From: an uncultured delta proteobacterium
GTDB lineage: Bacteria; Desulfobacterota; RBG-13-43-22
Assembly (NCBI GenBank): GCA_963746605.1
Contig: CAVVCH010000051.1
Location: forward strand, 6,136 to 70,135
Direction: 5' to 3'
DNA: 64,000 nucleotides
The notes under the pieces: generated by a model
The model's database searches: none
Told to the model about the DNA's origin: nothing
The model's input: the letters and a program-made list of their open reading frames with translations, nothing else
Position numbers and translations under genes: made by a program
Shown here: one piece after another, positions 32,547-56,382 of the stretch
How positions within the stretch are numbered: position 1 is the first letter of the stretch
Layout of the letters: every line of letters starts with the position of its first letter

Positions 32547-32624
32547 GGTTGCTACTCCTTTTTCCGCTCAAAACCTGCGGAGGTGTAAATCCCTGGTCAT
32601 TTGAGTTTTGGGCATTGCTGTTTG

Positions 32625-32655
32625 TTTCGGATTTCGGATTTCGGATTTCGGATTT
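32625..32655. repeat. (TTTCGGA)x4 half-copy of the 7-bp-unit repeat
   Basis: GTTTCGGATTTCGGATTTCGGATTTCGGATTT between the corrinoid protein and methyltransferase genes. Confidence 0.75.
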
Positions 32656-32658
32656 TAT

Positions 32659-33339: not shown

Positions 33340-33364
33340 AGGAACCATCCTCCAGTAGTTATTT

Positions 33365-40790: not shown

Positions 40791-40805
40791 ACCAACCTCC
40801 AAAAC

Positions 40806-40933: not shown

Positions 40934-42364
40934 TTATATGCCCAGTTTCCCGGGATTCATAATGTCGTTGGGATCCAGGAGTTTTTTCACCTGCCTCAGC
41001 AGGGAAAGATACCCCGGGTGGGCCCGCTGATTGATCTCCCGGGCAAAGTCCACCGGGGGCTTGTAGGGCATGCCGCCGTGATCCAGATCGACCTTGAGAC
41101 ACTCCACGATGGCCTGTCGGGCGTTTTCCGTTTCCTCGGGACTTTTCTTATTGAAGGGAATCATGGCCCGGAGCATACCGTAGTGGACACCCCGGTACAT
41201 GCTCATGCGAACCGAAGGAGAGAGGTTATGCTCGATCAGGATTTTTTTCCAGTCGTTATAGACCGGGGCCCATTTGTTGGCCGGCGTAAAAGTGCCCGGC
41301 CAGGAAATGCCCGCGCCGCCCTGTTTGCAGTAGTTTTTGGTGGAGCCGACAATTTGGCTGGGTAACTGGGTCCGGGCCCGCAAGGCCTCTTCCGGGTATT
41401 GGGTTACCTGAAGGGAGGTCCCCTTTTTCTTCTCCTCCGCGACCACCGTCTCCCAGATTTCTTCCCGGGCTTCCTTTTCCTTTTCGGTGAAGGAGTTGGT
41501 ATTGGCGAAACTGAACCATTCCGGGGCGGAATCGGGTTTGGGTTTGAAGGGATACGGGATGGGCACCTGGGCCAGCCACCAGGAGACGGCCGTCAGGTCG
41601 TCACAGATCTCATAAGTGCTCAGATTCATCATGTAGGAGACCATGTCTTCCACATTCTCGCAGGAGACGGTGAAGACCTTCAAGACCGGCGGAATGGGAT
41701 GAACGGTGATTCCCAGTTTGGTGACCACGCCGGTGCTTCCCAGCCAGCCTTTGAACAGGCCGTCCAGTTGGGGCATCGGCAGCACGCTGTGCCAGGCCTC
41801 GGCGTTGATGGCGCAGGAACCCACCCGCACCAGCTCGCCGGTGGGCAGGACCACTTCCATGCTGGTAATCTCCTGGCTGTTCAAGCCGTAGCGGGCGTTC
41901 AATCCGCCAATCCCGTGGGAAATGGCGCAGGAGGAAACAGAGGCCGAAGGGGGGCCCACCGGCCAGCCGAAACGCAGGTTATGTTTATAGAGAGCGCTGG
42001 CCAACTGGCCATGGGAGACCCCCGGTTCAATCACGGCATAATGGGATTCGGTATCGATTTTGAGAATCTTATTCATCCGTTTCAGATCCAGAATAATGCC
42101 GCCCCGTTCCGGAATGGTCAGACCCCCGATGTTGGTTCCGGCCGTGTAGGGCACCACGGGGATCTTCTCCCGGTTGGCCAGTTTCAGGACCGCCTGAATC
42201 TGCTCCACGGTGGTGGCCATGACCACATAGTCCGGCAGTTTGGGTTGCACGAAGGACATGTCGTAGGAATAAGCATAACGAATGTGTTTGGCCGCGGTGG
42301 CATTCTTGGGGCCCACGATAGAGGCCAACTCATTTAAAACAGCATCTTTGCTGGTGACATGCAT
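40934..42364 (-). CDS. FAD-binding oxidoreductase (GlcD / D-2-hydroxyacid dehydrogenase, VAO/PCMH family)
   Basis: PYTAGTNIGG, LDLKRMNKIL, VIEPGV, TGVVTKL and C-terminal LDPNDIMNPGK. Confidence 0.85.
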   Translation of the reverse strand: MHVTSKDAVLNELASIVGPKNATAAKHIRYAYSYDMSFVQPKLPDYVVMATTVEQIQAVLKLANREKIPVVPYTAGTNIGGLTIPERGGIILDLKRMNKILKIDTESHYAVIEPGVSHGQLASALYKHNLRFGWPVGPPSASVSSCAISHGIGGLNARYGLNSQEITSMEVVLPTGELVRVGSCAINAEAWHSVLPMPQLDGLFKGWLGSTGVVTKLGITVHPIPPVLKVFTVSCENVEDMVSYMMNLSTYEICDDLTAVSWWLAQVPIPYPFKPKPDSAPEWFSFANTNSFTEKEKEAREEIWETVVAEEKKKGTSLQVTQYPEEALRARTQLPSQIVGSTKNYCKQGGAGISWPGTFTPANKWAPVYNDWKKILIEHNLSPSVRMSMYRGVHYGMLRAMIPFNKKSPEETENARQAIVECLKVDLDHGGMPYKPPVDFAREINQRAHPGYLSLLRQVKKLLDPNDIMNPGKLGI

Positions 42365-42484
42365 AAAATCCTCCTTTGTTTCAGGAATGAAGGCTACGTA
42401 AGCGTCTTTACCAGGGCGGACCCCGGATCGCCTTCCGGGCCGGATGCCCAGTCCAGTCACCCGGGTCCGATGAATAAACAAGGA

Positions 42485-44002
42485 CTATTTTCGGCCGATG
42501 GTCCCCTCCCAGGTGCTGACCTTGGTCTCTTTTTTCTCCTCTTCGCCGAACCAGCGGGAGGTGACACATTTGGATTCCGTGTAGAAGGCCACCCCGTCTC
42601 GGCCCATGACATGCAGGTCGCCAAAAAAGGACTGCTTGTGTCCGGAAAAGGGGAAGTAGGAGATGGGCACGGGAATGCCTACATTGACCCCGACCATACC
42701 GGCGTCGGTCCTCCGGGTGAATTCCCTGGCGTAATAGCCGTTTTGAGTAAAGATGGCCGAACCGTTGGCAAAGGGGCTGGCGTTCATGATGGCCAGGCCT
42801 TCTTCGAAATCCTTGACCCGTTTGATACAGGTCACCGGACCGAAAATCTCGGAATCGCCCACGCTCATCCCCGGTTTGACATGATCGAGAAGGGTGGGGC
42901 CGATGAAGTGACCGTTTTCAAACCCGGGGACGACGATGTCCCTTCCGTCGAGAACCAGTTCTGCGCCCTCGGCGACACCCTTGTTGATCCAGTCGATAAC
43001 CGATTTCTTATGCTCCGCGGAGACCACCGGTCCCAGTTCCGTATCAGGATGGTAGGCGCATCCGACCTTGCGCTCCTTGGCGAACTTGATCAGGTAACCC
43101 AGGAATTCGTCGGCGCAGGCTTCTTCCACGCAGAGGACCGGCAAGGCCATGCAGCGCATGCCGGCGCAGCCGAAGGTCGAATTGATGATCCCTAAAGCGG
43201 AGCGCTCCAGTGCGGCATCGCGCATGACCAGGGCGTGGTTTTTGGCCTCGCAGAGGGCTTGAACTCTTTTGCCGTGGGCGGCGGCCGTGGCATAAATATG
43301 GCGGCCCACCGCAGTGGACCCGACGTAAGAAATCCCCCGGACGTCGGGGTGCTTGAGAAGCAGCCCCGCTTCATCGCGGCTGCAGGTCACCAGGTTCACC
43401 ACCCCGGGGGGCATCCCGGCTTGAATGAGCAGCTCCAAAACCCGCACCGCGGTCTGAGGCGTCAAACTGGCCGCCTTGAGGACAAAGGTGTTGCCCATGG
43501 TGATACACAGGGGAATCATCCAGCCGAAGGGGATCATGGACGGGAAGTTGAAGGGAACGATCCCCGCAAAAACGCCGATCGGCTCGCGGTACATGACAGT
43601 ATCGTGCCCGGTGGAAACGTTCATCAGGGCGTCGCCCTGCATGAGCACGGGAGCGGCGCAGGCCAGCTCCACCACCTCGATGCTTTTAAGGACATCCCCC
43701 CGGGCTTCATCCAGGTTTTTGCCTAACTCCATGGAAACCGAAAGAGTCAACTCCTCCAGATGGGCCTCCATAAGCTGACGCAAACGGAACATTAAGTCGG
43801 TTCGCTGTTGCACGGACTTGCTCGACCATTTCGGGAAGGCCGCTTTAGCCGCCGCCACGGCGCTTTCCACTTCGTCAACGGTACAGCAAGGGGCCTCCGC
43901 CATAATCTCTCCCGTGCTGGAATTCGTCACCGGCATACATTTGCCGGTACTGGATTCCCTCCACTCGTTGTTGACACAATACTTTAAATTTTTGACTGCC
44001 AT
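42485..44002 (-). CDS. mmsA: (Methyl)malonate-semialdehyde dehydrogenase, CoA-acylating
   Basis: GIVPFNFPSMIP, SYVGSTAVG, EAKNH, GCAGMRCMA catalytic Cys, VGVNVGIPVP, FSGHKQSFFGDLH..GRDGV. Confidence 0.9.
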   Translation of the reverse strand: MAVKNLKYCVNNEWRESSTGKCMPVTNSSTGEIMAEAPCCTVDEVESAVAAAKAAFPKWSSKSVQQRTDLMFRLRQLMEAHLEELTLSVSMELGKNLDEARGDVLKSIEVVELACAAPVLMQGDALMNVSTGHDTVMYREPIGVFAGIVPFNFPSMIPFGWMIPLCITMGNTFVLKAASLTPQTAVRVLELLIQAGMPPGVVNLVTCSRDEAGLLLKHPDVRGISYVGSTAVGRHIYATAAAHGKRVQALCEAKNHALVMRDAALERSALGIINSTFGCAGMRCMALPVLCVEEACADEFLGYLIKFAKERKVGCAYHPDTELGPVVSAEHKKSVIDWINKGVAEGAELVLDGRDIVVPGFENGHFIGPTLLDHVKPGMSVGDSEIFGPVTCIKRVKDFEEGLAIMNASPFANGSAIFTQNGYYAREFTRRTDAGMVGVNVGIPVPISYFPFSGHKQSFFGDLHVMGRDGVAFYTESKCVTSRWFGEEEKKETKVSTWEGTIGRK

Positions 44003-44042: not shown

Positions 44043-44966
44043 TTATTTAATCTCTAACGAACGCTTGGTTATGCCGGTCGGGGGTTGGGAAGCCAGATAC
44101 AGCGGACTGGTCCCCACCCGCTTCAAAATAACCCCCCGGTTTTTCATCAGCGGATCTCCCTCGGCTACCACCCGGGCCCCCGGGTTCAGGAGCAGGTGCC
44201 AGTGACTGGAAGACCAGAACTGGGGGAATTCCTGGGGGTCGAAAGGCGCGGTTTTAGTGACCTCAGCCAGATAGTTGCCGACCTCGAGCAGGTCGTTGCC
44301 CATGGCCACCGCGGCGGCCAGAGGATCTTTCTGAATCATGCATTCCAGGATCAGCCGATGGGATTTGCGGACGCCCTGATAGAAATCGACCCCCAGACGC
44401 AATTCGGTCTTCAGGGAGCTGAGTATGTTGTCCACAAAATCGATGATCAGATTGAGCAGGGTATTGTCCACCATCCGGGCCAGGTAACGGTGAAAGCCGA
44501 TTTCTTTGGAGACCTCGTTCTCGCTTTTGGTGACGGTGCGGCCGATGATCTTTTTGAGGTTGAAGATGTCTTTATCCGTACCCCGGGTGGCGGCAATCCC
44601 GGCCACCGTGGGCTCGATGAGGTAGCGGACCATGGTGATTTCTTTGAGGGAGACTTTCTCGAAGCGCAGGAAATTGATCAGGCTGTTCAGGGTGGTCCGC
44701 ATGTCCACGTCGGCCACAAAGGCGCCGCCCGAAGTCCCTTTGCGGATTTCGATCAGGCCCATGGCTTCCAGGACCCGCAGGGCTTCGCGGAGGGTGGCCT
44801 TGCTTACTCCGAACTGGAGGATCAGTTCTTTTTCTGAAGCCACCCGTTCACCGGGTTTCAGTTGGCCGGAAAGGATGGCGTCCCGGATCTGATCGATGAT
44901 CTGGTCCGAGATCTTACGGTTTTTACTGGCCGCCTGGAACAAGGAGGTCCCTTCCTTAACAATCAT
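44043..44966 (-). CDS. GntR/FadR-family transcriptional regulator
   Basis: LKPGERVASEKELILQFGVSKATLREALRVLEAMGLIEIRKG wHTH followed by an FCD domain. Confidence 0.9.
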   Translation of the reverse strand: MIVKEGTSLFQAASKNRKISDQIIDQIRDAILSGQLKPGERVASEKELILQFGVSKATLREALRVLEAMGLIEIRKGTSGGAFVADVDMRTTLNSLINFLRFEKVSLKEITMVRYLIEPTVAGIAATRGTDKDIFNLKKIIGRTVTKSENEVSKEIGFHRYLARMVDNTLLNLIIDFVDNILSSLKTELRLGVDFYQGVRKSHRLILECMIQKDPLAAAVAMGNDLLEVGNYLAEVTKTAPFDPQEFPQFWSSSHWHLLLNPGARVVAEGDPLMKNRGVILKRVGTSPLYLASQPPTGITKRSLEIK

Positions 44967-45186
44967 CTCCCCGCCCTTGATGGGAGGGGTTAGGGGGGTG
45001 GGTGAACAAGGTTAACTAAAATTTTGGCGCTATCTTAGTCAGAGCCTTTGATTGCTGTCAAGTGAAATATTATAATCATTATATTTTTTATACTATTTTT
45101 GTTTGACATTTATAAACCTCCTTATATATAAGATGGAAATCAATCTGTCGGTCAAAAAGACCGCAAACCGGCAAAGGAGATCAGAC

Positions 45187-45537
45187 ATGGGAGTCAAGAT
45201 CGATCCATTGAAATGCACCGCCTGCATGGCCTGCGAAATGGCCTGCGGATATCATCGGGACGACGCCTTCGCGCTGCTCTCGGCCTGCATCGTCACCTAC
45301 CGGACCAAAGAGAAAAAAGATTATTTCGGAGTGCTATTGAAAGAGGAGGAAAGCCTGGTCATCGCCCGGCCGGAAGGGCTGGAGGTAAAAAAGATCGGTG
45401 AGGTCGATGAAAAGTCCAAGGGCGATGCCTCGGCCAAACCCATGCTGCTTCGTGAACCCTGCGACCTCTGCCAGGACCGGGAGAGCGGCCCCTTGTGCCT
45501 GCAGTTCTGTCCGGTGGACGCCATTTACTTAGATTAA
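45187..45537 (+). CDS. 4Fe-4S dicluster ferredoxin-like protein
   Basis: CTACMACEMAC and CDLC..PLCLQFCP. Confidence 0.8.
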   Translation: MGVKIDPLKCTACMACEMACGYHRDDAFALLSACIVTYRTKEKKDYFGVLLKEEESLVIARPEGLEVKKIGEVDEKSKGDASAKPMLLREPCDLCQDRESGPLCLQFCPVDAIYLD

Positions 45538-45549
45538 AGGAGAGCTCCC

Positions 45550-46857
45550 ATGGAATATCTTTCATCCAATAAAATAGCCGTTGTGGATTTAGGGAAGGCC
45601 GAGGTCGGGGAAGAAGAACTGGAAGACTCCCTGGTTCAGGAAAAGATCGGCGGGGCCGGAATCACCACCGCCTTATACCGGCGTTTCGAAGCCGAGGATC
45701 CCATCGTGATCGGGACCGGGCTGCTGACCGGCACCCTGGTCCCCGGGTCGGCCCTGGGTCTGGTAACGGCGAAAAGTCCCCTGACCGGTAAGCTCGCCCA
45801 CGCCCCCTTGACGTTATACCTGGGGATGGAGCTGAAGTTTTCAGGGTTTGATTATATCGTCATTAAAGGGACTTCGGCCAAGCCGGTGTACCTCTGGCTT
45901 CATGACGGGATTCTGGATATTCAACCGGCTGATGAAATCTGGGGCCAGGACACCTTGGCGGCCACGGATGCCATCCGACTGACCCTGGGCGATGACCTGA
46001 TCCAGGTCCTGACCATCGGCCCGGCCGGCGAAGCGGGGTCTTCCCTGGCCCAGCTTATCGTCAATTACTGGGGCAGCGGGGACCGCTGGGGGTTCGGCGG
46101 GCTGTTCGGTTCAAAAAAGTTGAAAGGGATCGCCGTCCGAGGCATGGGGCTGCTGGAAATTTCCGACCCGGAGGGATTTATTATCCGCTGCCAGTCCCTG
46201 CTTTCCGAGATTAAGCAAGGCTCCTGGGCCGGGAAAAAAGGCCTCCCGGATATGGCGGCCGCCCTGGGGGAGAATGACGTGGCCGACTGGCTGGGGCCTA
46301 TTATCCACCGCCATAAATCCTGTTTTAACACCCCCTATGCCACCAATACCTTTGTTTATCTGGATGAAGACCCCAGGCTCTATAATGAGCCCGATGGGGC
46401 CGATCCCGGGTTTTTAGTCAACGACCTGTACGGACTGTTGGGCTTTAAAAAGATCGGCCTTTCCGCCGTCGATTCTTGCCGTTTGCTGAAATATTGTGCC
46501 CGGTTGGGCCTCGATCCGGCCGCCGTGGCCGAATTGAGCCTGAAGGCCGGCAACCGGGACTTCGAAAGCATCCGGCAATCTTTACCCGGATTACAGGGAA
46601 CCCTGGAATGTGTGGGGCAATCGCCTTTCAGCCCCTGGACCCCGATGAAACCGATCTTTGCCGATTTCGGAGTAACGGCCGACGAGGCCTGGTGGAGACG
46701 CCGGCAGGCCGTGGCCTATATTTTTGGCATTCACCCGATTTTTGCCCTGATGTCCCCCGAGCTGAGCGAGGACGTTCTGTTGGAACTGGCCGGCCTCGGA
46801 ACGGGGATGGAGTTTACGCCGGAGACGCTGGAACAGGTGATAAACGACCTTGGTTAA
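45550..46857 (+). CDS. Aldehyde:ferredoxin oxidoreductase-like protein, short and degenerate
   Basis: AOR N-terminal domain (AKSPLTG, SGFDYIVIKG, IGPAGE, GSKKLKGIAVRG); only 435 aa; the CxxCxxxC position reads SCFNTPYAT. Confidence 0.75.
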   Translation: MEYLSSNKIAVVDLGKAEVGEEELEDSLVQEKIGGAGITTALYRRFEAEDPIVIGTGLLTGTLVPGSALGLVTAKSPLTGKLAHAPLTLYLGMELKFSGFDYIVIKGTSAKPVYLWLHDGILDIQPADEIWGQDTLAATDAIRLTLGDDLIQVLTIGPAGEAGSSLAQLIVNYWGSGDRWGFGGLFGSKKLKGIAVRGMGLLEISDPEGFIIRCQSLLSEIKQGSWAGKKGLPDMAAALGENDVADWLGPIIHRHKSCFNTPYATNTFVYLDEDPRLYNEPDGADPGFLVNDLYGLLGFKKIGLSAVDSCRLLKYCARLGLDPAAVAELSLKAGNRDFESIRQSLPGLQGTLECVGQSPFSPWTPMKPIFADFGVTADEAWWRRRQAVAYIFGIHPIFALMSPELSEDVLLELAGLGTGMEFTPETLEQVINDLG

Positions 46858-46900: not shown

Positions 46901-47054
46901 AAATCCGAATTCGAAGCACGAAATCCGAAACAAATTCGAATAACCGAAATTCAAATGACCGAAACCAGAACCTTTAAGCGCGGGGCATGTTTTGAATTTT
47001 GAAAATTTGATCATTTCGATTTGTTTCGGATTTCGTGCTTCGAGTTTCGAATTT
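46901..47054. repeat. Long inverted repeat of 7-bp units (AAATCCG / TTTCGGA family)
   Basis: AAATCCGAATTCGAAGCACGAAATCCGAAACAAAT...ATTTGTTTCGGATTTCGTGCTTCGAGTTTCGAATTT. Confidence 0.85.
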
Positions 47055-47058
47055 CTTC

Positions 47059-48291
47059 ATGTCTCCCTGGATGATTAGGCGGACTACCATCGTGGGGCCT
47101 CATTTGGAAAACCCTTCGATCGCCATCTACACCGGGCACGGCAGTTCCCATTCCTGGCTTTGGTTCGTCGATATCTTCGAGCGGGCGGGCCTGACGAACC
47201 TGGCCTTTTTCGATGAGAAGGACCTCAAGGCCGGGAAGCTGACCGGGAGTCAGGTCCTGGCCGTCTCCGGGGGGGACACCTTCGCCCTGGCCGAAGGCCT
47301 GGGCCGGGAAGGGGCCGCCGCCTTGGAGGCCTGGGTCCGTGGGGGGGGGCTTTATCTCGGCTCCTGCGCCGGCGCCTACCTTCCTTTGCGCTCTTCCAAA
47401 GAACCGCTGGACCTGTTTAACTTCGTGGAAGCCAAAATAAGCAACCTGACCGCCATCCTGCCCACCCCTCAAAAATTCAAAGAAAAGTTCAGCCAGCCTT
47501 ACGGCTGTTCCTTCATCTATCACCCGGTCCGGGAGGCAGTCCGCATCTCCGGCTATGGCCATCCCCCGTTTTCCGGGACAGACGACTTCCCGGTACCCCT
47601 GTACGGAGGCCCGGCCATGATCCCCCGGGGGGAGGTCGAAACCCTGGCCTGGTACAGCGGCTTTACCGAAAAAACGGTCTTTCTGATGGATCCGGAATTG
47701 GCCCGGGAAACCCTGATCGGGAAGTCGGCGGTGATTCGAAAAAGGCTGGGCGCAGGCTCCTTCTATTTGTTCGGCCCCCACCTGGAACATCCCCATTATC
47801 GGAAGGCCAACCAACTGGTCATCGATACGATCCGGTTTGAAAAGAAACCGGACCAAGGGCTGAGGGATTCCGAGTGTGAAAGGGAAGTGATCCTGGATAA
47901 CCGGCGGATCGGGGAATGGCTCCGGGCCCTCAAACGGGAATTGAGCAACGCCCGGATTGTGGTGGCCGGCATCGAAAATGAACCGATTTTCTGGCAAATC
48001 GGTCGCAAGACTTACGAACCCCTCAAAATGCGGGTCTTTCTGGAGGCCCTCTGGAAACGCCTGCCTACGATGGAAAAAGCCGGTCCACTGGTTATTCCCG
48101 GCCGGTGTCGGGGTCTGATCGAAAAGGCCGAGGACCTGACCGGGAAGGTGCGGCGCCTGAAAAATCGATTCGATCGGAAACAGGAGACCGCCCCGCTGGC
48201 GGAAGAGATTTTTACTCTTTTAAAAAGATTGGCTCCGGATTTTCTCACGGTTTATTTTAGCACGAATAAGGCCGTCGGCCATGCGCTGTAA
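47059..48291 (+). CDS. BPL_N-like (class I glutamine-amidotransferase fold) protein with helical C-terminal extension
   Basis: IAIYTGHG, LAVSGGD, GGGLYLGSCAGAY, YGGP and FGPHLEH motifs; start uncertain. Confidence 0.7.
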   Translation: MSPWMIRRTTIVGPHLENPSIAIYTGHGSSHSWLWFVDIFERAGLTNLAFFDEKDLKAGKLTGSQVLAVSGGDTFALAEGLGREGAAALEAWVRGGGLYLGSCAGAYLPLRSSKEPLDLFNFVEAKISNLTAILPTPQKFKEKFSQPYGCSFIYHPVREAVRISGYGHPPFSGTDDFPVPLYGGPAMIPRGEVETLAWYSGFTEKTVFLMDPELARETLIGKSAVIRKRLGAGSFYLFGPHLEHPHYRKANQLVIDTIRFEKKPDQGLRDSECEREVILDNRRIGEWLRALKRELSNARIVVAGIENEPIFWQIGRKTYEPLKMRVFLEALWKRLPTMEKAGPLVIPGRCRGLIEKAEDLTGKVRRLKNRFDRKQETAPLAEEIFTLLKRLAPDFLTVYFSTNKAVGHAL

Positions 48292-49153
48292 CAAAACCCT
48301 GCCGCTGTTTCTGATGGCCCAGTTCCTGATCCTGGGCGGATGTCTGTTGTTGGCCCGGCCGATCAACGCCCGCGAGATTCCTCCCGACTCCTCCTGGTTC
48401 ATCGACCTGAGCCGTTTTTCCCAGTCCGCCCATGGGACCCTGAATTGTGAAGCCTGCCATGGGAACATGAAAGAATCGGGAAAAGCTCACCCGGAGAGCA
48501 ACGATCCTCAATTTCTTCGCCGGGAAGCTACCCGGGTCTACGACTACGGCCGCTGCCGATCCTGTCATCGCCTAGCCTATGAACGCAGCCGCTCCGGGGC
48601 TCATGCCCAGGCCCTGCAGAAGGAAAAGGAAGGCACCGCTTCAAGAAAAGCGGCTGATCCCAAGAAATATCCGGCTCCGACCTGCGGGAATTGTCATTCC
48701 TCCCATTATGAAAAGGCCCATCGATCCCGTCTGGCAATCGGTCGGGCGATGACCGACACCTGCGGGGCCTGCCATCCGGCTCAGGCGGCCTCCTATCTGG
48801 AAAATCCCCATGGTAAAAAGGCCGTCTACCTGGGGAAAGTCAGCTCGGCCTATTGCACCGACTGCCACGGGGCACATTCGTGCCGATCTCTGAAAGATCG
48901 AAAGACCGCCCTGGACGCCTGTCAACGCTGTCATCCTCAGGCCCGGGAGCAGTTGACCGGCTTTGTGATCCACGCCACCGATCAGGGCTTGACCGAAAAA
49001 GACCGGGATAAAAAATACCGGGTCGATCTGATCCGGACGGTGACCCTGGTCATGCTGGTGCTGGTCCTCGGGCTGGTGGTTTTTTTCTATGGGCATAGTT
49101 TTATGTGGCTTCTGCGGGAGCTTCACGAAAAATTGAAAAGGCGTAAATCATGA
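48281..49153 (+). CDS. Hexaheme c-type cytochrome with signal peptide and C-terminal TM helix (CbcL-like c domain)
   Basis: Six CxxCH (CEACH, CRSCH, CGNCH, CGACH, CTDCH, CQRCH); TM ending FFYGHSFMWLLR. Confidence 0.9.
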   Translation: MRCNKTLPLFLMAQFLILGGCLLLARPINAREIPPDSSWFIDLSRFSQSAHGTLNCEACHGNMKESGKAHPESNDPQFLRREATRVYDYGRCRSCHRLAYERSRSGAHAQALQKEKEGTASRKAADPKKYPAPTCGNCHSSHYEKAHRSRLAIGRAMTDTCGACHPAQAASYLENPHGKKAVYLGKVSSAYCTDCHGAHSCRSLKDRKTALDACQRCHPQAREQLTGFVIHATDQGLTEKDRDKKYRVDLIRTVTLVMLVLVLGLVVFFYGHSFMWLLRELHEKLKRRKS

Positions 49154-49851
49154 CCCCGGCTCGACAGGAAAACCTGGAGGTAATTCGTTTCCCGGTTATT
49201 CACCGTCTGCTGCACTGGGTCATCATGGTGGGTTTTATCGGTCTGGCCCTGACCGGCTTTTCCCTGAAGTTCAGTTCATGGACCTGGGCCCAATGGATCG
49301 TTTCCCTGCTGGGCGGTCCCGGCTGGACCGGTTACTGGCACCGCTGCTGGGCGGCCATCACTTACAGCGGCGTGATCGTTCACCTGGGCTGGCTGGTCTA
49401 TTTCAAGACTGTGCTGAAGGGGCGCCTCACCGGCCCGCAATCGGCTTTTCCCCGCGGTCAGGATGTCAAGGACCTGCTGGCGCATATAAAATATTTTCTG
49501 GGGCAAGGACGGCCGCCGCAATTCAATCGCTATGCCTACTGGGAAAAACTGGACTACTGGGCCATGCTGGTGGGCATGAATACCATGGGTCTGACCGGGC
49601 TGGTATTGTGGTTCCCGTTGTTTTTCAGCGGTGGCCTGCCCGGGTATTTTATCAATCTGGCCCGGATACTTCACTGGTACGAAGCCCTGCTGGCCGTGGC
49701 CTTAAAATTCGTGGTCCATGTGGTTACCGCCCATCTGCGTCCGGAAGTTTATCCCCTGGATAAAGCCATCTTTACCGGGAAGACAACGTTGGAGAGGATG
49801 AAACACGAGCATCCAGGGGAATGGGAAGAAGTCATAAAGGGAAGAAACTAA
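49150..49851 (+). CDS. Cytochrome b membrane subunit (FdnI/HyaC-like)
   Basis: RFPVIHRLLHW..LALTG, WHR, FNRYAYWEKLDYW, ILHWYEA..VHV; ATGA overlap with the hexaheme gene. Confidence 0.85.
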   Translation: MTPARQENLEVIRFPVIHRLLHWVIMVGFIGLALTGFSLKFSSWTWAQWIVSLLGGPGWTGYWHRCWAAITYSGVIVHLGWLVYFKTVLKGRLTGPQSAFPRGQDVKDLLAHIKYFLGQGRPPQFNRYAYWEKLDYWAMLVGMNTMGLTGLVLWFPLFFSGGLPGYFINLARILHWYEALLAVALKFVVHVVTAHLRPEVYPLDKAIFTGKTTLERMKHEHPGEWEEVIKGRN

Positions 49852-49853
49852 CC

Positions 49854-51416
49854 ATGGGCTTCTTTAAGCAAAATAGCATTATTCACAATGCCGAAAGGCA
49901 GGGAAAGGCGTCGAAATCGTCATTCCGGCGAAACCTGCCCCGGCAGGTTGTAAGTCGGGGGCCGGAATCCAGGGGCAATCCCCCCCTTGGGCTCCTGCTG
50001 ATCGGCGTTATTCTAGCCGGCATCTTGTGCGCCGGATCCGGCTGGGCGGCGGAGCCGGTTTCCATGCCCCTAACGGTTGAGGGGAAGGAACGGGTTTGTC
50101 TCGATTGCCATCGCCGGCCGAATATCCAGAGCAACGAAGGGGCGTTTACTTCTCAGGCCCTGTGTTTCGAATGCCACGGCCGGGAGGGAATAAAACGAAA
50201 GTGGGGCGAAACCGCCGTTTCTCTAAAGGTAACCCCCGAATCCTTTGCCGGCAACCGTCACCGGCTCGTGGCCTGCATCGCCTGTCATATCGATGTGGCC
50301 CGATCCCCCCATCGGACCCGAGTGGGAGCCCAATGCCTTTCTTGCCACACCGTCCACGGAGAAGGAACCGCCCATGACCCGCATCTCCGGGTGAGCTGTC
50401 AGGCCTGCCACCGGCAGTCACCTGCGGTGACCTTAAATAAAACTACCGACCGGGTGGTCCTCTCCCGGCTTAATGACCAGGGTGCTCCTTTAGCCTTGAC
50501 GGACCACCGGCTGCCGGATACCCGGGATCAGAAATTCTGTGAGCGCTGCCATGTGCCGGGGAACAAGGTCGGGGCGGCCGCGGCGGTGCTGCCCGCCAAA
50601 AGCCTTCTCTGCCTGCCCTGCCACTATGCCCCGATCGCCGTCGGGCATTCTCTGTTCTGGGCGGCCTTGGTTGTTTTTGGCCTGGGTCTTTTGTTGACCG
50701 GGATGTTCTGGATCAGCGGCAGCGTGCAGGGAGAGGAGAAATCGGTCCACCGGAAAATCGCCCTCGGTTCCGAAGCGGCCTGGTCTATCCTGTTCTCCCG
50801 GCAATGCTGGACGATTCTGAAAACGTTTTTCTTGGATGTGCTGCTTCAGCGGAGGATTTTGCAGGAGAGCGTCCGGCGCTGGTTCCTCCATTCCCTGATT
50901 TACTACGCCATCCTGTTCCGGTTCGGACTGGCCCTGTTCACCCATTTCGCCTACTTCTTCAAACCCGGCGGCGCCTTGGCCTACGCCCTGATCGATAAAA
51001 ATCATCCTTTTGTGGCCCTGACGAACGACCTCCTGGGCCTGTTCATCGTCTTGGGCTTGGCGGCCGCGCTCTTCCAGCGATTCGTAGTGAAACCACCCCA
51101 CGTGGTCAGTGAGTGGAAGGACAATTGGGCCCTGGCCATCATCGGAGCCCTGGTTCTAATGGGTTTTTTACTGGAGGGGGCCCGCATTCTAGTTACCCAG
51201 GTCCCGGCCGAAAAGGCGGCCTATTCGTTCGTGGGCTATCTCCTTTCATTGCTCTTGGCCGTTTTTCCGGCGGACTGGCCGATCCTCTATGTCTACTTCT
51301 GGTATGCCCATGCCGTCCTGGGAGCGCTGCTGGTGGCCTACCTCCCCTTCGGGAAATTAAAGCATATTTTCGTGACGCCGCTGAGCCTGGTGTCGCAGTA
51401 TAAAAAGAAGGATTAA
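49854..51416 (+). CDS. Heptaheme cytochrome c fused to a NarI/DsrM-like cytochrome b domain
   Basis: Seven CxxCH (CLDCH, CFECH, CIACH, CLSCH, CQACH, CERCH, CLPCH) followed by TM helices with RRWFLHSLIYY and WYAHAVLGALLVAYLPFGKLKHIF. Confidence 0.85.
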   Translation: MGFFKQNSIIHNAERQGKASKSSFRRNLPRQVVSRGPESRGNPPLGLLLIGVILAGILCAGSGWAAEPVSMPLTVEGKERVCLDCHRRPNIQSNEGAFTSQALCFECHGREGIKRKWGETAVSLKVTPESFAGNRHRLVACIACHIDVARSPHRTRVGAQCLSCHTVHGEGTAHDPHLRVSCQACHRQSPAVTLNKTTDRVVLSRLNDQGAPLALTDHRLPDTRDQKFCERCHVPGNKVGAAAAVLPAKSLLCLPCHYAPIAVGHSLFWAALVVFGLGLLLTGMFWISGSVQGEEKSVHRKIALGSEAAWSILFSRQCWTILKTFFLDVLLQRRILQESVRRWFLHSLIYYAILFRFGLALFTHFAYFFKPGGALAYALIDKNHPFVALTNDLLGLFIVLGLAAALFQRFVVKPPHVVSEWKDNWALAIIGALVLMGFLLEGARILVTQVPAEKAAYSFVGYLLSLLLAVFPADWPILYVYFWYAHAVLGALLVAYLPFGKLKHIFVTPLSLVSQYKKKD

Positions 51417-51532
51417 TTTTTTTTACCGCAGACTCACACGGACAAAGATAGGACCAAAGGCGAATTCCCACCGTACAGCTTGGTCGGTGGCCATAATGAG
51501 CTTTTCTTTATCGTTTGTTGTTAGGTGATATA

Positions 51533-52921
51533 ATGACTGAAGAAGTTCCGGTTGAAACCAGCGTTTCAACAATCCCGCCGGGGCCGCAGCCCTCTGAATC
51601 CGTAGAACCTGAGACGGAAACGCGTCCAGAGCCGACTCGTGAACTCCCCCTTTCCAACCTGTCTGCCGCCCGATTGATCCAGCTTGAGGCCTGCACCCGC
51701 TGCGGGGAATGCCTGAACTGGTGTCCGGTCCACGACCAGGACGCCCGGGAACAGGTCATCCCCCGGAAGAAGATCGCCGATTTCCTGCATATCGTGAAGA
51801 CCCAGCAATCCCTCTTGACTCGGATCATGAGGCAGGAAAAAGTGAGCGATCCGATCAAAAGGCTGTTGGCTACCGTATTCCGCTATCGAGAGATCAATCA
51901 AAACGAAATCGATGATTTTGTTCGCAACTTGTATGAGTGCTCCACCTGCGGGCAGTGCCAGATCGTCTGCCCGGCCAACATCGATACGGTCAACCTCTGG
52001 GAGGATATCCGGCGTCTGGTCGTTTCGGCCGGTTACGGGCCGCTGGAGACGCAGAAGGTGCTGGTCAAAAGCGTCAAGGCCTATGATAACCCCTGGCAAC
52101 AGCCCCGGGCAGCCCGCACCAAATGGGCGCGTCGGGCGCAAAAAGACAATCAGATTGCCGCCCCGCCCCGGGAGATCAAGAAGACCAGGGCCAAAGTCCT
52201 GCTCTGGTTGGGCTGTACGGCGGTCTATGATGTGAACGTGAAGCAGATCGCCATCAGCACCATCAATATCCTCGAAAGCCTGGGGATCGATTACGGCTGC
52301 CTCGGCGGCGACGAGAAGTGCTGCGGCAGCGTGCTCCTGCGTATGGGAGACGCGGAATTCGAACGTATCGCCGGCGACAACATCAAACAGCTTAACGAGC
52401 TGGGCATTCAGACCCTGGTCAGTTCCTGTTCCGGCTGTTTCAAGACCATCAAGGAAGACTATCCCAAGGTGGGCAAGCTGAATTTCGAGGTGCTCCACAC
52501 CGTGGAATTCCTCCGGCGACTGCTGGAGGATAAGAAGCTGCCCTTTGTTCAACCGTTGGAAAGAAAGGTCACCTACCACGATCCCTGCCACCTGGGACGG
52601 GCCAGCGGCGTCTTTGAGGATCCCCGGGTACTGATGAAGGCCATCCCGGGACTGGACTTGATCGAAATGCCCCGGAGCGGCGAATATTCCCGCTGCTGCG
52701 GCGCCGGCGGCGGACTGAAGGCCGGCTATCCGGACATCCAGAACAAGATGGCCCAGGAGCGGGTGCGCGAGGCCGAAGGCACCGGCGCCAGCGAACTGAT
52801 CTCGGCCTGCCCCTTCTGCTATGCCGGGCTCCAGGTGGGGATCAAGGCCCTGGATTCGCCCCTGGTCATGAAAGACCTGAGCTGCCTGGTCGAGGAGGCA
52901 CTGATTAAAAAAGCCGATTAA
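51533..52921 (+). CDS. (Fe-S)-binding CCG-domain protein (HdrD/DsrK/TmcB-like)
   Basis: CTRCGECLNWCP, CSTCGQCQIVCP, KCCGS, YHDPCHLGR and RCCGAGGG. Confidence 0.9.
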   Translation: MTEEVPVETSVSTIPPGPQPSESVEPETETRPEPTRELPLSNLSAARLIQLEACTRCGECLNWCPVHDQDAREQVIPRKKIADFLHIVKTQQSLLTRIMRQEKVSDPIKRLLATVFRYREINQNEIDDFVRNLYECSTCGQCQIVCPANIDTVNLWEDIRRLVVSAGYGPLETQKVLVKSVKAYDNPWQQPRAARTKWARRAQKDNQIAAPPREIKKTRAKVLLWLGCTAVYDVNVKQIAISTINILESLGIDYGCLGGDEKCCGSVLLRMGDAEFERIAGDNIKQLNELGIQTLVSSCSGCFKTIKEDYPKVGKLNFEVLHTVEFLRRLLEDKKLPFVQPLERKVTYHDPCHLGRASGVFEDPRVLMKAIPGLDLIEMPRSGEYSRCCGAGGGLKAGYPDIQNKMAQERVREAEGTGASELISACPFCYAGLQVGIKALDSPLVMKDLSCLVEEALIKKAD

Positions 52922-53000: not shown

Positions 53001-53028
53001 TTGACGTGGCCATAATTATAGCTATAAT
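53001..53028 (+). promoter_or_regulatory. Sigma-70 promoter of phd-vapC with an overlapping 14-bp palindrome
   Basis: TTGACG-N16-TATAAT; perfect palindrome ATTATAGCTATAAT at 53015-53028. Confidence 0.6.
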
Positions 53029-53110: not shown

Positions 53111-53393
53111 GTGAACAAAAGGGTATCGGTGGCCGAGGCCAAGAATAAACTCCCGGCCATTATCCATGAAGTGGAAAAGGGTTCCATTGTGGAGATCACC
53201 CGTTACGGCCGGGCCGTAGCCTTTGTAGTCCCCCAGAAGGATTATGAGCGACTGCAGGAGAAAGGCGGGGGATTTTGGGAAGCCCTGATCAGGGTCAGGA
53301 ATATCATGAATGCCGAGGGGATAGTTATGGAGGATCGCGATTTTTCCGACCTCCGGGACTCCTTCGCCGGGACGTCAGGTCGATTTGGATTGA
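53111..53393 (+). CDS. Phd/YefM antitoxin (indel near 53365)
   Basis: VSVAEAKNKLPAIIHEVEKG..EITRYGRAVA Phd motif; shifted frame ends PGRQVDLD-TGA just before the vapC ATG. Confidence 0.8.
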
Positions 53394-53812
53394 ATGAAGT
53401 ACCTTTTAGACACCAACCTGATTTCCGAATTGATTAAACCCAATCCGGACCGGGGTGTGAAGGAGAAGTGCCGCCAGATACCGACGGGACCTGGCTACCG
53501 CCGCTCCGGTCTGGCATGAATTGCAGTACGGTTGTTACAGATTGCCTCATTCCCGAAAAAGGGAACTATTGGAATTGTTTCTGGAAGAGGTCGTTTCAAA
53601 CAATCTGCCTATACTCCCCTATGATGAACAGGCTGCCCGCTGGCATGCCCTGGAAAGGGCGCGCTTATCCTTGACGGGGCAGCCACCTTCCTTTGCCGAC
53701 GGCCAGATAGCCGCCATCGCCGTCACCAATGGGCTGACGCTGGTGACCCGAAACAATGACGATTTCCAATTCTTTCACCGGATTACACCTGGAAGATTGG
53801 CACACCTCTTAG
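53394..53812 (+). pseudogene. vapC: VapC PIN-domain toxin, frameshifted as given (about 2 indels)
   Basis: MKYLLDTNLISE, WHELQYG, FADGQIAAIA, LVTRNNDDF; C-terminus TGLHLEDWH in a shifted frame. Confidence 0.85.
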
Positions 53813-53886
53813 TCGGGAAAGAATAAAAATGGCGTAGCCATCCGGTACTTATTTTGATACCGGATTCAGATTAAAAAGGACCGGTC

Positions 53887-54857
53887 ATGAAAAACAAATT
53901 ATCAACAATCGGACTGGCCGTTTTGCTTCTCATCCTGCTGGTCCAGGGGTGCCCCGAAGCGCCGAAAAAAAACCGATCCGGATCGCCTACTTGCAAAGTG
54001 ACATCCACCATCTCCCTTGTTGGATCGCCCTCGAAAAAGGGTTCTATTCCCGGGAAGGGCTGGAGGTGGAGGTGGCCGGGGTGTTCAAAGCCGGGCCGGA
54101 GTTGATGAGCGCCTTTGCGGCCGGGGCCCTGGACGCCGGTTACGTGGGGGAAGCGCCGGCCACCACGGCAGTGGCCAACAAGGCCGCCCGGGTGGTGGTA
54201 TTGGCCCAGGTCAACACCGAGGGCTCGGCTGTGGTGGTCAGGAAAGAGGGGCCGATTCAAAAAGTGGCCGACCTGGCGGGCAAGAGCGTGGCCATCCCCG
54301 GCCATGCTACCGTTCAGGATTTTCTCTTAAGAAGGGCACTGAAGCTGCACAAGCTGGACCCCGGGGCGGTACGGACCATCGTGATCAAGCCCCCCGAAAT
54401 GATCGGGGCCCTGCGGACCGGCCAGGTGGACGGCTTCATCGCCTGGGAACCGTACCCGGCCAAGGCCCAGACCTTGGAGATAGGACGGGTGCTGGCCCAT
54501 TCCCGGGATATCTGGAAGGATCATCCGTGCTGCGTTCTGGCGGTGGACGGGAAGTTTTTCACCGCCCAGCCGGACCAGGCCAAAAAGCTGGTCCGGGCCC
54601 ACGTGAAGGCCACGGATTTCATCCACCAGAACCGGGAGGAAGCCGTTAGAATCGGAGTCAAGTACACCGGCATGGATGAAAAAACGGTGAACCTGGCCAT
54701 GCAGAACGTCCATTACACCTACCAACTCAGCGTGGAAGCGGAAAAAGAATATGTGGATTTCCTCTCCCTGATGAAATACATCAAGGTGGAGAGCCCCCAG
54801 GCCTTCATCAGGGAATTTCTCAATTTGGAAATCCTCCCTGAAATCCTGAAAAAATGA
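53887..54857 (+). CDS. SsuA/TauA/NMT1-type ABC substrate-binding protein (indel in the A8 run at 53965-53972)
   Basis: Lipoprotein-like signal LLVQGC; IRIAYLQSDIHHL, GPELMSAF..LDAGYVG, DLAGKSVAIPG, VDGFIAWEPY and HPCCVL. Confidence 0.85.
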
Positions 54858-55609
54858 AAGTTGAAAAATTTCTATTTCCCCTGATCCTGCTGTTGATCTG
54901 GCAGGGGCTGTCTTCCGGGGCGATCATTCCGGCCTACAAGCTTTCCTCTCCGGTGGAGATTCTTTACGGCTTCGGGGGGCTGGCCTTCGAGGGCATGCCG
55001 CCGGGGCACCTACTCCATAAGCATATCCTGTACAGCCTCGTTCGGGTCGGGCTGGGATTCGGAGCCGCCACCGCCTTGGCCGTCCCGTTAGGCTTGCTGA
55101 TGGGCTGGTCCGGAAAAATCCGGCGCTTTTTCCGGCCCGTCCTGGAAGTGATCCGGCCCATTCCGCCGCTGGCCTGGATCCCAATCGCCATCCTCTGGTT
55201 CGGCATCGGGATCCCGAGTGCGGCGTTTATCATCTTTCTGGGGGCCTTTTTTCCGATTTTGCTGAACACCATATCGGGCGTGCTGGCCATCAACCCTACG
55301 CTGGTGGAGGCGGCTCTATCTCTCAAAGCCCGGGAGAAGGATATCTTCTTCAAAGTACTTTTACCTGGGTCGATTCCCTCCATCTTTGTGGGCCTGCGGA
55401 TTGCCGTCGGCATCGGCTGGATGACGCTGGTGGCGGCGGAGTTTACCGGGGTCAGGGAGGGATATGGTCTGGGGTATATGATCATGACCGCCCGCGATAT
55501 CCAGCGACCGGATGAAATTCTGGCCGGCATGCTGGTCATCGGGCTGATCGGTCTGCTGATCGACGTGCTGCTGCGCAAGGTCGAAACCAGGGTCATCCCC
55601 TGGAAATGA
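54854..55609 (+). CDS. SsuC/TauC-type ABC permease
   Basis: RPIPPLAWIPIAILWFG, GAFFPILLNT, PGSIPSIFVGLR, VAAE. Confidence 0.9.
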   Translation: MKVEKFLFPLILLLIWQGLSSGAIIPAYKLSSPVEILYGFGGLAFEGMPPGHLLHKHILYSLVRVGLGFGAATALAVPLGLLMGWSGKIRRFFRPVLEVIRPIPPLAWIPIAILWFGIGIPSAAFIIFLGAFFPILLNTISGVLAINPTLVEAALSLKAREKDIFFKVLLPGSIPSIFVGLRIAVGIGWMTLVAAEFTGVREGYGLGYMIMTARDIQRPDEILAGMLVIGLIGLLIDVLLRKVETRVIPWK

Positions 55610-55623
55610 AAAAGGAATAACCC

Positions 55624-56382
55624 TTGAGTCTGGAGATGGTCCATCTGCACAAGGTTTATGCCGCCAGACCCGGCCACTCGGAACTGGCCGTCCTGGAAGA
55701 CATCAACTATCAGGTGGCCGACGGGCACTTCGTGACCATCGTCGGACCGAGCGGCTGCGGGAAGACGACCCTCCTGCGGGTAATGGCCGGGCTGGAACAG
55801 GTCACCAGTGGAAGAGTGCTTTTACGGGGAGAAGAAATTACCGGACAGGCGGGAAAAGTCGGGCTGGTTTTTCAGGAATATGCCTTGTTCCCCTGGCGGA
55901 CCACTCTGGAGAATATCGAAATGGGTCTGGAAATTCGAGGGCTCCCCAGGCCGGACCGGAAGGCTGCCGCCCTGGAGTACGTTAAGCTTTTCGGCCTGAG
56001 TGGGTTCGAGGGGCACTATCCGCGGGAGCTTTCCGGCGGCATGCAGCAGCGGGTGGCCATTGCTCGGACCCTGGTCTTGAATCCGCGAGTCGTCCTGATG
56101 GACGAACCCTTTGCCTCTCTGGACAGCCAGACGCGCAACGCCCTCCAAGAATTTCTGGTCGACATCTGGCAGCAGCGGAACGAGACCATCCTCTTCGTTA
56201 CCCATAACGTGGACGAGGCCGTGTTCCTGAGCGACCGGATTGTGGTCCTGTCACAACGGCCGTCCAGGATCATCCGGGATTTCGAGGTGAATATCCCCAA
56301 GCCGCGGGACCGCACCAGCAACGCCTGCAATGATTTGCGAAGGGAAGTCCTGAAGGTGCTGGGGGAACAGAAGATTTTGTAA
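55624..56382 (+). CDS. SsuB/TauB-type ABC ATPase
   Basis: GPSGCGKTT, VFQEYALFPWRT, LSGGMQQRVAIAR, LMDEPFASLD. Confidence 0.9.
   Translation: MSLEMVHLHKVYAARPGHSELAVLEDINYQVADGHFVTIVGPSGCGKTTLLRVMAGLEQVTSGRVLLRGEEITGQAGKVGLVFQEYALFPWRTTLENIEMGLEIRGLPRPDRKAAALEYVKLFGLSGFEGHYPRELSGGMQQRVAIARTLVLNPRVVLMDEPFASLDSQTRNALQEFLVDIWQQRNETILFVTHNVDEAVFLSDRIVVLSQRPSRIIRDFEVNIPKPRDRTSNACNDLRREVLKVLGEQKIL

Follow-up and report, generated by a model that had tools for sequence, protein, structure and literature searches.

The 64,000-nt stretch of DNA analysed here (the window; contig CAVVCH010000051.1 of assembly GCA_963746605.1, positions 6,136 to 70,135 of the forward strand) comes from an uncultured delta proteobacterium of the Desulfobacterota, and at window positions 48281-52921 it carries four co-directional open reading frames (ORFs) on the + strand, here named g1 to g4, that appear to encode a hitherto undescribed electron-transfer complex in the membrane of sulfate-reducing bacteria. 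The genes are confirmed; their function is something we infer. An earlier reading of the letters alone (the original prediction) had placed a four-gene membrane redox module at this site, and all four ORFs are present. As it had also counted, they combine 13 c-haem motifs (six CxxCH in g1 and seven in g3) with two different cytochrome b domains, PF01292 and PF02665. None of the four reached an NCBIfam equivalog cutoff. Our best reading is that g1-g4 form a hub in the style of DsrMKJOP and Hmc, built from units resembling HdrDE or the electron transfer flavoprotein (ETF):menaquinone oxidoreductase EMO/EtfD on the one side and FdnI or CbcBA on the other. Four genes proved to be too narrow a boundary, since the real unit comprises at least seven genes (fer, aorN, g0, and g1-g4) next to a divergent GntR gene with its own conserved operon behind it. 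We found no description of the cluster in the full-text literature, and an earlier mention in the subscription literature is possible.

The first two genes pair a cytochrome c with a cytochrome b. The CxxCH motifs of g1 lie at residues 56, 92, 135, 161, 192, and 214, and its transmembrane (TM) segments at residues 7-25 and 250-268. Across 70 sequences, the six haem motifs and seven further periplasmic histidines are kept, as are H272 and H282 at the cytoplasmic end of the anchor helix. No c-haem motif is present in g2, which matched the Pfam cytochrome b561 family PF01292 (53.6 bits vs. a cutoff of 30.1) and could be aligned over its full length to Escherichia coli FdnI (1kqf_C). Residues H22, H64, H175, and H190 correspond to the FdnI haem ligands H18, H57, H155, and H169, so that all four are retained, and their conservation among homologues is 95-100%. 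The protein scored below equivalog level for the formate dehydrogenase gamma and hydrogenase cytochrome b subunits (TIGR01583, 50.7 vs. 115.85 bits; TIGR02125, 16.2 vs. 121.5 bits), and no FdnGH or hydrogenase genes adjoin it. The two genes had been predicted to represent Geobacter CbcL split in two. The architecture is indeed analogous, but the likeness is one of analogy: g2 is a canonical four-histidine FdnI-type b, and the pair seems to resemble the two-subunit CbcBA layout just as much. According to published domain descriptions, CbcA is a heptahaem protein anchored beside the b-type CbcB and CbcL fuses both kinds of domain, and it is by such descriptions only, not by sequence, that g1 and g2 were compared with these proteins. 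A recent duplication relating g1 to the haem domain of g3 was considered and is unsupported, because the similarity between them is marginal (E = 0.002) and consists mainly of the haem motifs.

The third gene was foreseen as a fusion of seven c-haems to a NarI-type domain, and this assignment can be refined to the three-histidine HdrE/EMO subgroup. Seven CxxCH motifs precede a PF02665 NarI-like region with five or six hydrophobic helices. In 109 sequences, the seven motifs and five additional periplasmic histidines are invariant, and so are H346, R356, H486, and H504 in the membrane part (520-aa numbering). H346 is on TM2, while H486 and H504 are on TM5 with a spacing of 18; R356 stands at what we take to be the place of the second TM2 histidine of NarI, ten residues past the first. 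In the EMO of S. aciditrophicus, H87 and H251 bind the proximal haem and H233 alone binds a stacked, periplasmic-side "twin-haem." The three g3 histidines reproduce this pattern (H87, H233/H251), which is that of the EMO/HdrE subgroup. The S. aciditrophicus protein has A101 at 14 residues after the TM2 histidine, where the modelled HdrE has Ser; at this position, g3 has Ala in the window protein and Ser in the family consensus. NarI-type proteins encoded elsewhere in the same genome show the same pattern of one TM2 histidine and two TM5 histidines spaced by 18. Two further NarI-type proteins of this genome (C23:22985-24385 and C58:25951-27654) contain a single CxxCH in a long TM4-TM5 loop, a C-terminal Fe-S domain, and a second TM2 histidine at +14; they are an unusual b/c hybrid family distinct from g3.

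An AlphaFold2 (AF2) model of g3 had a mean pLDDT of 74, with the membrane part mostly at 80-98, and a Foldseek search with this model gave M. smegmatis EtfD (9ojn, the top match) and NarI as the best matches. A search of the PDB with the membrane domain as a single sequence gave no match, and a g3 profile search of the PDB returned weak c-haem matches only, with NarI at an E value of about 1. Since homologues are only 477-489 aa long, the true start of g3 probably lies downstream of both ATG codons, before the signal-like segment PPLGLLLIGVILAGILCAGSGWA.

The product of g4 has no TM segment and matches PF02754 twice and a Fer4 dicluster domain (Pfam). It contains two CxxCxxCxxxC motifs and two CX34-35CCGX34-36CXXC motifs (C234/C269-C270/C305/C308 and C358/C394-C395/C432/C435) in which all ten cysteines are kept, so that two cubane motifs and two CCG domains are combined as in an HdrD-type partner. 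The nearest solved relative is EtfD 9ojn (phmmer, 1e-47). In equivalog searches, g4 scored 214 bits against a cutoff of 385 for TfrB, 89 against 735 for TmcB, 72-75 against 400 for DsrK (NF045796), and 67.5 against 750 for HmcF. Because all equivalog scores were far under their cutoffs, we rejected identification of g4 as DsrK, TmcB, HmcF, GlpC, GlcF, TfrB, or LdhH. DsrK, TmcB, and HmcF have a single CCG motif plus a T/GECGH cysteine (PMC10861901). With its ten CCG cysteines, in contrast, g4 is by its motifs an HdrD/HdrB-type protein and not a DsrK-type one; of the predicted "HdrD/DsrK-like" character, the first half holds and the second does not. Both characterised EMOs have lost one CCG cysteine. 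A second CCG protein encoded in the window, at 39468-40802, is 38% identical to g4.

These assignments bear out the prediction that the genes do not follow the standard DsrMKJOP, Hmc, Tmc, or Qrc layout. Neither an NrfD nor a Fer4_11 domain was found in the seven proteins scanned (fer, aorN, g0, and g1-g4), and none of these proteins corresponds to the NrfD-type DsrP, the Fe-S protein DsrO, or the trihaem DsrJ. The HmcA equivalog scored 16.4 bits against a cutoff of 400, which together with the HmcF score and the absence of an NrfD-type HmcC separates the cluster from Hmc. As for TmcABCD, the TmcB score is far from its cutoff, and the c-haems here are carried by a hexahaem protein and a fused heptahaem domain, with no separate tetrahaem cytochrome.

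A profile of g3 homologues identified relatives in 108 species-level genomes, and we analysed the best 80 loci (49-89% identity), comparing neighbourhoods by tblastn with the window proteins. Upstream genes were counted in the 56 loci whose upstream flank reached 5.2 kb or more and g4 in the 64 loci with adequate downstream flank. The relatives have the identical seven genes in the same order and orientation (fer, aorN, g0, g1, g2, g3, g4): aorN, g0, and g1 were present in all 56 loci, fer and g2 in 55 of 56 each, and g4 in 63 of 64. The synteny proposed as a check on the module is thus amply seen, as is conservation of the b-haem histidine ligands. The GntR/FCD gene was found in 48 of the 56 loci, always on the opposite strand. 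Median identity of the conserved cluster proteins across loci was 45-70%, and persistence of the motif cysteines and histidines through 70-109 homologous sequences cannot, on this comparison, be chance. Carriers include Desulfospira joergensenii DSM 10085 and Desulfatitalea alkaliphila M08but, as well as metagenome-assembled genomes of Desulfobacula, Desulfotignum, Desulfosarcina, Desulfatirhabdiaceae, Desulfatiglandales, Desulfarculaceae, and Desulfocapsaceae. Behind the GntR gene, a divergent operon for a methylmalonate-semialdehyde dehydrogenase (MMSDH), a GlcD-like oxidase, and a CCG protein was kept in nine of nine genomes checked, with 74-93% identity in the GlcD-like FAD oxidase; it also encodes a Urt/Liv-type ABC importer.

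Within the window, the junctions are tight. The g0 and g1 genes overlap by 11 nt, g1 and g2 overlap by 4 nt, and g2 stops about 2 nt ahead of the second ATG of g3. In a search at the level of sequence patterns, promoter-like sites facing both ways were present in the gntR-fer spacer (45032-45076) and another after g4, and no convincing internal promoter or terminator was found inside the cluster.

The case for g2 and g3 as parts of one complex rests most firmly on fused relatives. Proteins of the g3 family were present in 37 of 401 genomes sampled from the phylum, in three tiers distinguished by neighbourhood. Tier 1 (at least 48% identity, about 15 of the 401 genomes) has the full cluster. 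In Tier 2 (42-44% identity, four genomes of another family), g1 is followed by g2 and g3 as a single 716-aa ORF in which PF01292, seven haems, and PF02665 succeed one another. The flanking genes in Tier 2 (L086:478-14260; L087-L089) encode HdrC-, HdrB-, and HdrA-like proteins, a NuoEF-GltD fusion, and a selenocysteine-split formate dehydrogenase of the NAD type, and the set looks like a membrane-anchored Hdr/formate dehydrogenase system. One Tier 1 locus, L061, also has g2 and g3 fused. Long open frames at L099 and L101 were refuted as fusions by a frame check, and only L086-L089 and L061 are fused. The fusion is consistent with the predicted topology, as g2 ends in the cytoplasm and the signal segment of g3 would become a fifth helix that leaves the haem domain outside. 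The earlier proposal of two quinone modules joined by a periplasmic haem wire fits this anatomy and is reinforced by the fused proteins. In Tier 3 (31-38% identity), which has no g2, an 11-haem c::NarI fusion is accompanied by a CCG protein and a GcvH-like lipoyl protein. At L093:3312-10916 (also L090-L098), the 11-haem fusion gene is followed by genes for the GcvH-like lipoyl carrier and an HdrD-like CCG protein; the L093 set comes directly after genes for an E2 acyltransferase, an E3 dihydrolipoyl dehydrogenase, and an LplA/LipB-LipA fusion and may be a membrane-bound dihydrolipoyl-protein oxidising system.

The three upstream genes encode a trio of proteins predicted to be cytoplasmic. In fer, the motifs CxxCxxCxxxC and CxxCx8CxxxCP are both 100% conserved; its likely start is at 45187, and homologues align from residue 23-29. 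The AF2 model of aorN (pLDDT 93) matched the aldehyde oxidoreductase (AOR) of P. furiosus (1aor) with a TMq of 0.81 and BamB (4z3w) with a TMq of 0.80, where TMq is the Foldseek TM-score normalised to the query, and the predicted structure therefore has the AOR fold. Its sole conserved cysteine is C316, which leaves the four-cysteine ligand set for a [4Fe-4S] cluster missing. In AORs, the AFOR_C domain binds pterins and the cluster; Pfam recognised only the N-terminal AOR domain of aorN and did not detect the C-terminal AFOR_C domain. Many polar residues of aorN remain conserved, and for this reason it does not look like a decaying gene. In g0, a GxC111xG elbow and H249-x-E251 are kept in 65 sequences, giving a putative Cys-His-Glu triad.

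More distant fer-aorN(-g0) sets (35-45% identity; 64% at L104) occur in other settings. At L105, L110, and L112, fer-aorN-g0 lies beside a plain NarI-type b. At L104:7491-17300, the three genes are followed by those for a Fer4_11 protein, an NrfD protein, a molybdopterin-family (MopB) protein, and a multihaem c, a Qrc-like set, and then by a NarI-type b and HdrC/HdrB-like genes. This order places the same cytoplasmic trio on a different dual-quinone-module complex, and it implies that the FdnI-type b and hexahaem pair of Tier 1 fills the place of an NrfD-type quinone module. In L106-L109 (family f54), fer-aorN is embedded in one operon with genes for two GlcD-like oxidases and two CCG proteins and no membrane genes. 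In this small sample of distant sets, g0 was present only where a NarI-type b was present. At L105:5402-11885, the trio and its NarI-type b are flanked by genes for a PreA-like protein (DHODH fold with two Fer4 domains), a CoA-binding protein, and a LarA-like protein; there the trio stands in another catabolic setting. From the tiers and the fer-aorN neighbourhoods together, we conclude that the membrane part g1-g2-g3 is portable and serves as a platform for cytoplasmic modules of the HdrB/D type, and that fer/aorN repeatedly accompanies CCG proteins and GlcD-like oxidases. That a degenerate AOR-fold protein and its ferredoxin keep recurring beside GlcD-like oxidases and HdrD-like proteins suggests a cytoplasmic redox module that has yet to be characterised.

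Table 1. Features of the g1-g4 cluster and its flanks (window positions)
Feature	Position	Strand	Description
g1	48281..49153	+	290 aa; predicted periplasmic hexahaem cytochrome c with N-terminal signal-like segment and C-terminal TM anchor
g2	49150..49851	+	233 aa; FdnI/HydC-type four-helix dihaem cytochrome b, putative quinone module
g3	49821..51416	+	Signal/anchor and heptahaem c domain followed by a five-helix NarI/HdrE/EMO-type cytochrome b, all in a single polypeptide
g4	51515..52921	+	468 aa; predicted cytoplasmic Fe-S protein of the HdrD type; two cubane-cluster motifs, two complete CCG motifs
g0	47035..48291	+	Predicted cytoplasmic class-I GATase/peptidase-S51/BPL_N-like protein; PF09825 and PF03575 matches
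aorN	45550..46857	+	435 aa; trimmed AOR-family fold without [4Fe-4S] ligands; PF02730 only
fer	45103..45537	+	Small 2x[4Fe-4S] ferredoxin-like protein
GntR/FCD regulator, divergent	44043..44966	-	PF00392 and PF07729
MMSDH, CoA-acylating (divergent operon)	42485-44002	-	TIGR01722, 552 bits vs. cutoff of 448
GlcD-like FAD oxidase (divergent operon)	40934-42481	-	FAD_binding_4 and FAD-oxidase_C
Second HdrD-like CCG protein (divergent operon)	39468-40802	-	CCG domain
NMT1-type ABC importer (binding protein, permease, ATPase)	53949..56382	+	PF13379/PF09084

On the 3' side of g4, the NMT1-type ABC importer genes are present in 24-26 of the 48 loci with enough flank. Two small ORFs separate g4 from the importer in the window, at 53111-53437 (antitoxin-like) and 53521-53826, with a strong promoter-like site nearby at 53001-53028; we read them as a putative toxin-antitoxin-like pair, the first of which also lies 3' of g4 in the closest relatives, L001, L002, and L004. 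In 30 loci, a protein of about 230 aa without a Pfam match is encoded 3' of g4 (e.g., L001:10267-10953), with six conserved cysteines among C31, C54, C155-x2-H158, C186-x2-C189, and C208. Because the genome analysed here encodes no homologue of this 6-Cys protein, we dropped it as a candidate thiol carrier. On the - strand at 31527-33429, past the ABC importer of the divergent operon, are genes for a corrinoid-binding protein and a methyltransferase of the MtaA/CmuA family; the latter (69-77% identity) occupies that position in six of the related genomes checked. The presence of the corrinoid protein and the conserved methyltransferase hints that the island handles a methylated substrate.

How might these parts work together? 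The reading we prefer, to which we give about an even chance, is that g1-g4 make one three-terminal transmembrane complex serving the GntR-controlled catabolic island, with electrons entering at g4. At the first terminal, the cytoplasmic HdrD-type g4 would sit on the b-haem domain of g3, as in HdrDE, DsrMK, and EtfD. The second would be the FdnI-type dihaem b of g2, whose menaquinone site is expected on the cytoplasmic side by analogy with FdnI and whose partner g1 would stand in the place that FdnH has in formate dehydrogenase-N. The third would be the periplasmic face, where the 13 c-haems may bridge the outer b-haems of g2 and g3 and pass electrons to or from soluble cytochromes of the periplasm. 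As potential partners there, the genome has several small four-haem ORFs and two small subunits of [NiFe]-hydrogenases that score above cutoff. In the cytoplasm, the GlcD-like oxidase with its own HdrD-like partner and the fer/aorN/g0 trio would oxidise an imported organic substrate, MMSDH would process the resulting semialdehyde, and electrons would reach g4 directly or through a thiol/disulfide carrier, then leaving for menaquinone, the periplasmic cytochrome pool, or both. Our preference for input at g4 rests on the neighbouring genes, which encode oxidative enzymes of catabolism under a GntR/FCD regulator. The sequences themselves show the domains, their conserved ligands, the co-conservation and fusion of genes, and the recombination of modules; a single complex of all parts in this organism, the direction of the electrons, the substrate, and any coupling to the proton motive force are what we infer from them. 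Of the cytoplasmic reactions suggested in the original prediction, a 2-hydroxyacid or thiol/disulfide reaction fits the neighbours better than ETF does; the example of fatty-acid oxidation through ETF is unsupported, because the cluster contains no etf genes.

A further question is whether the two b modules would work in series or in parallel. A series path from g4 through the g3 b-haems, the c-haems, and the g2 b-haems to menaquinone would involve two membrane crossings and be electroneutral. We did not adopt a Q-cycle or reverse-loop energetic role for such a path as our preferred reading, since the two crossings should cancel electrically. If instead the modules are used in parallel, both would move electrons between the periplasm and the inside in the same electrical sense, by analogy with formate dehydrogenase-N/Qrc and Tmc/Hmc.

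Several points weigh against a single complex fed at g4 by the catabolic island. Because the series path would be electroneutral, the haem wire brings no obvious energetic benefit in that arrangement. The full CCG set of g4, like that of the catalytic HdrB, suits a thiol/disulfide substrate as well as a simple relay. The absence of cluster ligands from aorN makes the proposed role of the upstream trio less certain. The AF2 model of the g3 haem domain has a pLDDT below 50 at residues 61-70, 82-92, and 142-175. The ABC importer and the 6-Cys protein are downstream in only about half of the loci. Finally, the matches to the cluster sequence are from DNA metagenomes only, of wetland and soil.

A more elaborate form of this reading, which we hold tentatively and consider rather less probable, is a "b-c13-b" machine in which a cytoplasm-facing FdnI-type site and a periplasm-facing HdrE/EMO-type site, possibly with a twin-haem, would be linked by the wire of 13 c-haems into a redox loop running forward or in reverse, and in which the partner would be a cofactor-poor, AOR-derived enzyme with a Cys-His-Glu protein. 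If true, it could support quinone cycling or membrane-potential-gated transfer among menaquinone, periplasmic cytochromes, and the HdrD-type site.

Instead of one complex, the locus may encode two independent ones, a CbcBA/CbcL-like g1-g2 and a Tmc-like g3-g4, linked only via soluble periplasmic cytochromes. We regard this as unlikely, if still deserving of attention, as each pair does resemble a self-sufficient known unit (CbcBA; HdrDE/Tmc), the distant g3 relatives of Tier 3 have a CCG protein and no g2, and one locus, L052, is without g2. Set against these observations are the g2::g3 polypeptides of four genomes of another family and L061, the way in which g1, g2, and g3 stay together though their cytoplasmic partner changes, and the co-occurrence of the genes, whose start and stop codons overlap, in 55-56 of 56 loci.

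The flow of electrons may also be the reverse of what we propose, with menaquinol or periplasmic electrons passing inward to g4 and, via the ferredoxin, to the AOR-like protein or a disulfide, so that the system would be a membrane-energised counterpart of BamBC-BamD or HdrDE. Both complete CCG motifs of g4 would suit this direction, as they are found in the catalytic HdrB and HdrD, and dithiol/disulfide chemistry in the wider family is suggested by the GcvH-like lipoyl protein encoded between the Tier 3 cytochrome and CCG genes. Class II benzoyl-CoA reductase, in its BamB/BamC/BamD part, likewise combines a protein of the AOR family with a small ferredoxin and an HdrD-like protein, and the fold match of aorN to BamB agrees with this. 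We nevertheless find inward flow doubtful, to about the same degree as two separate complexes, given that aorN lacks the conserved [4Fe-4S] cysteines and a detectable AFOR_C domain, that the neighbours (MMSDH, FAD oxidase) are oxidative and under a catabolic regulator, and that no candidate thiol carrier is conserved in this genome.

The presence of dsrAB marks the organism as a dissimilatory sulfite reducer, and the architecture is analogous to DsrMKJOP, Hmc, and Tmc, which might suggest a DsrMK(JOP)/Tmc paralogue that reduces the DsrC trisulfide during sulfate respiration. The genome encodes a genuine DsrK (725 bits) beside dsrAB on another contig, C61, and the cluster is therefore not the organism's Dsr complex. 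With the low DsrK score of g4, its two CCG motifs in place of one plus T/GECGH, a tie to the GntR catabolic island, and a distribution limited to about 15 of the 401 genomes sampled, we consider a paralogous role very improbable. Least credible of all is an ETF:menaquinone oxidoreductase for beta-oxidation: EtfD 9ojn is the solved protein closest to g4 and also heads the fold matches for the membrane domain of g3, whose three histidines follow the EMO pattern, but no etfAB or acyl-CoA dehydrogenase genes are in or next to the cluster at any locus examined, two fused EtfD-like proteins are already encoded in the genome (at C54 and C34), and g4 has all the CCG cysteines of which the characterised EMOs have lost one.

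In anoxic sediments and wetlands, carbon is mineralised predominantly by sulfate reducers of the complete-oxidising type, and to our knowledge, the route by which electrons pass from their cytoplasmic dehydrogenases to the membrane is poorly understood. The parts of the present cluster can be compared with several known systems. As in formate dehydrogenase-N, g1 is a candidate periplasmic redox subunit with a C-terminal TM helix, as is FdnH, and g2 has the four helices and four haem ligands of FdnI; the cluster differs in having neither a catalytic FdnG nor a hydrogenase partner. Compared with the Cbc proteins, g1 has six haems vs. seven in CbcA and nine in CbcL, and in Geobacter CbcBA and CbcL serve extracellular electron transfer without a joined CCG module. 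The cytoplasmic side recalls BamBC(D) and the AorAB-type tungsten enzymes, in that a large subunit with the AOR fold occurs together with a small poly-ferredoxin and a CCG protein of the HdrD kind. At 435 aa, however, aorN is shorter than BamB or AOR (about 600-650 aa) and is without the four cluster cysteines; genes resembling HdrA or NuoEFG are also missing from the present cluster.

With HdrDE and EMO, the membrane domain of g3 together with g4 shares the HdrE plus HdrD composition, five helices, three conserved histidines, the 18-residue spacing of the TM5 histidines, two cubane motifs, and two CCG domains, and these proteins also gave the best sequence and fold matches. The two parts are split as in HdrDE and not fused as in EMO, g3 has an N-terminal heptahaem c domain that is missing from both, and a second cytochrome b accompanies them in a context without ETF or methanophenazine. 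Tmc likewise passes electrons across the membrane by way of a multihaem c together with a NarI-type b and a CCG protein; there, TmcA is a separate tetrahaem c3, and no FdnI-type b is present (TmcD was not searched for here). The likeness to DsrMKJOP and Hmc lies in the plan of the whole: a cytoplasmic CCG protein on a NarI-type b, a periplasmic c-haem wire, and a second quinone-interacting module (PMC10861901). In the present cluster, that second module would be an FdnI-type b with a TM-anchored hexahaem c and not NrfD with an Fe-S protein, the NarI-type subunit carries seven fused c-haems, the CCG protein has two CCG motifs vs. one plus T/GECGH in DsrK and HmcF, and the genes are tied to a catabolic island and not to dsr genes. 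For the two quinone modules of DsrMKJOP, the roles considered are quinone cycling, bifurcation, and pumping (PMC10861901). As a natural DsrMKJOP/Hmc variant in which both membrane modules would be dihaem cytochromes b, with the sidedness of the quinone sites known from solved relatives (FdnI; NarI/EMO), the cluster makes testable the question of why two quinone modules are joined via the periplasm, be it for quinone cycling, for bifurcation, or as a three-way junction.

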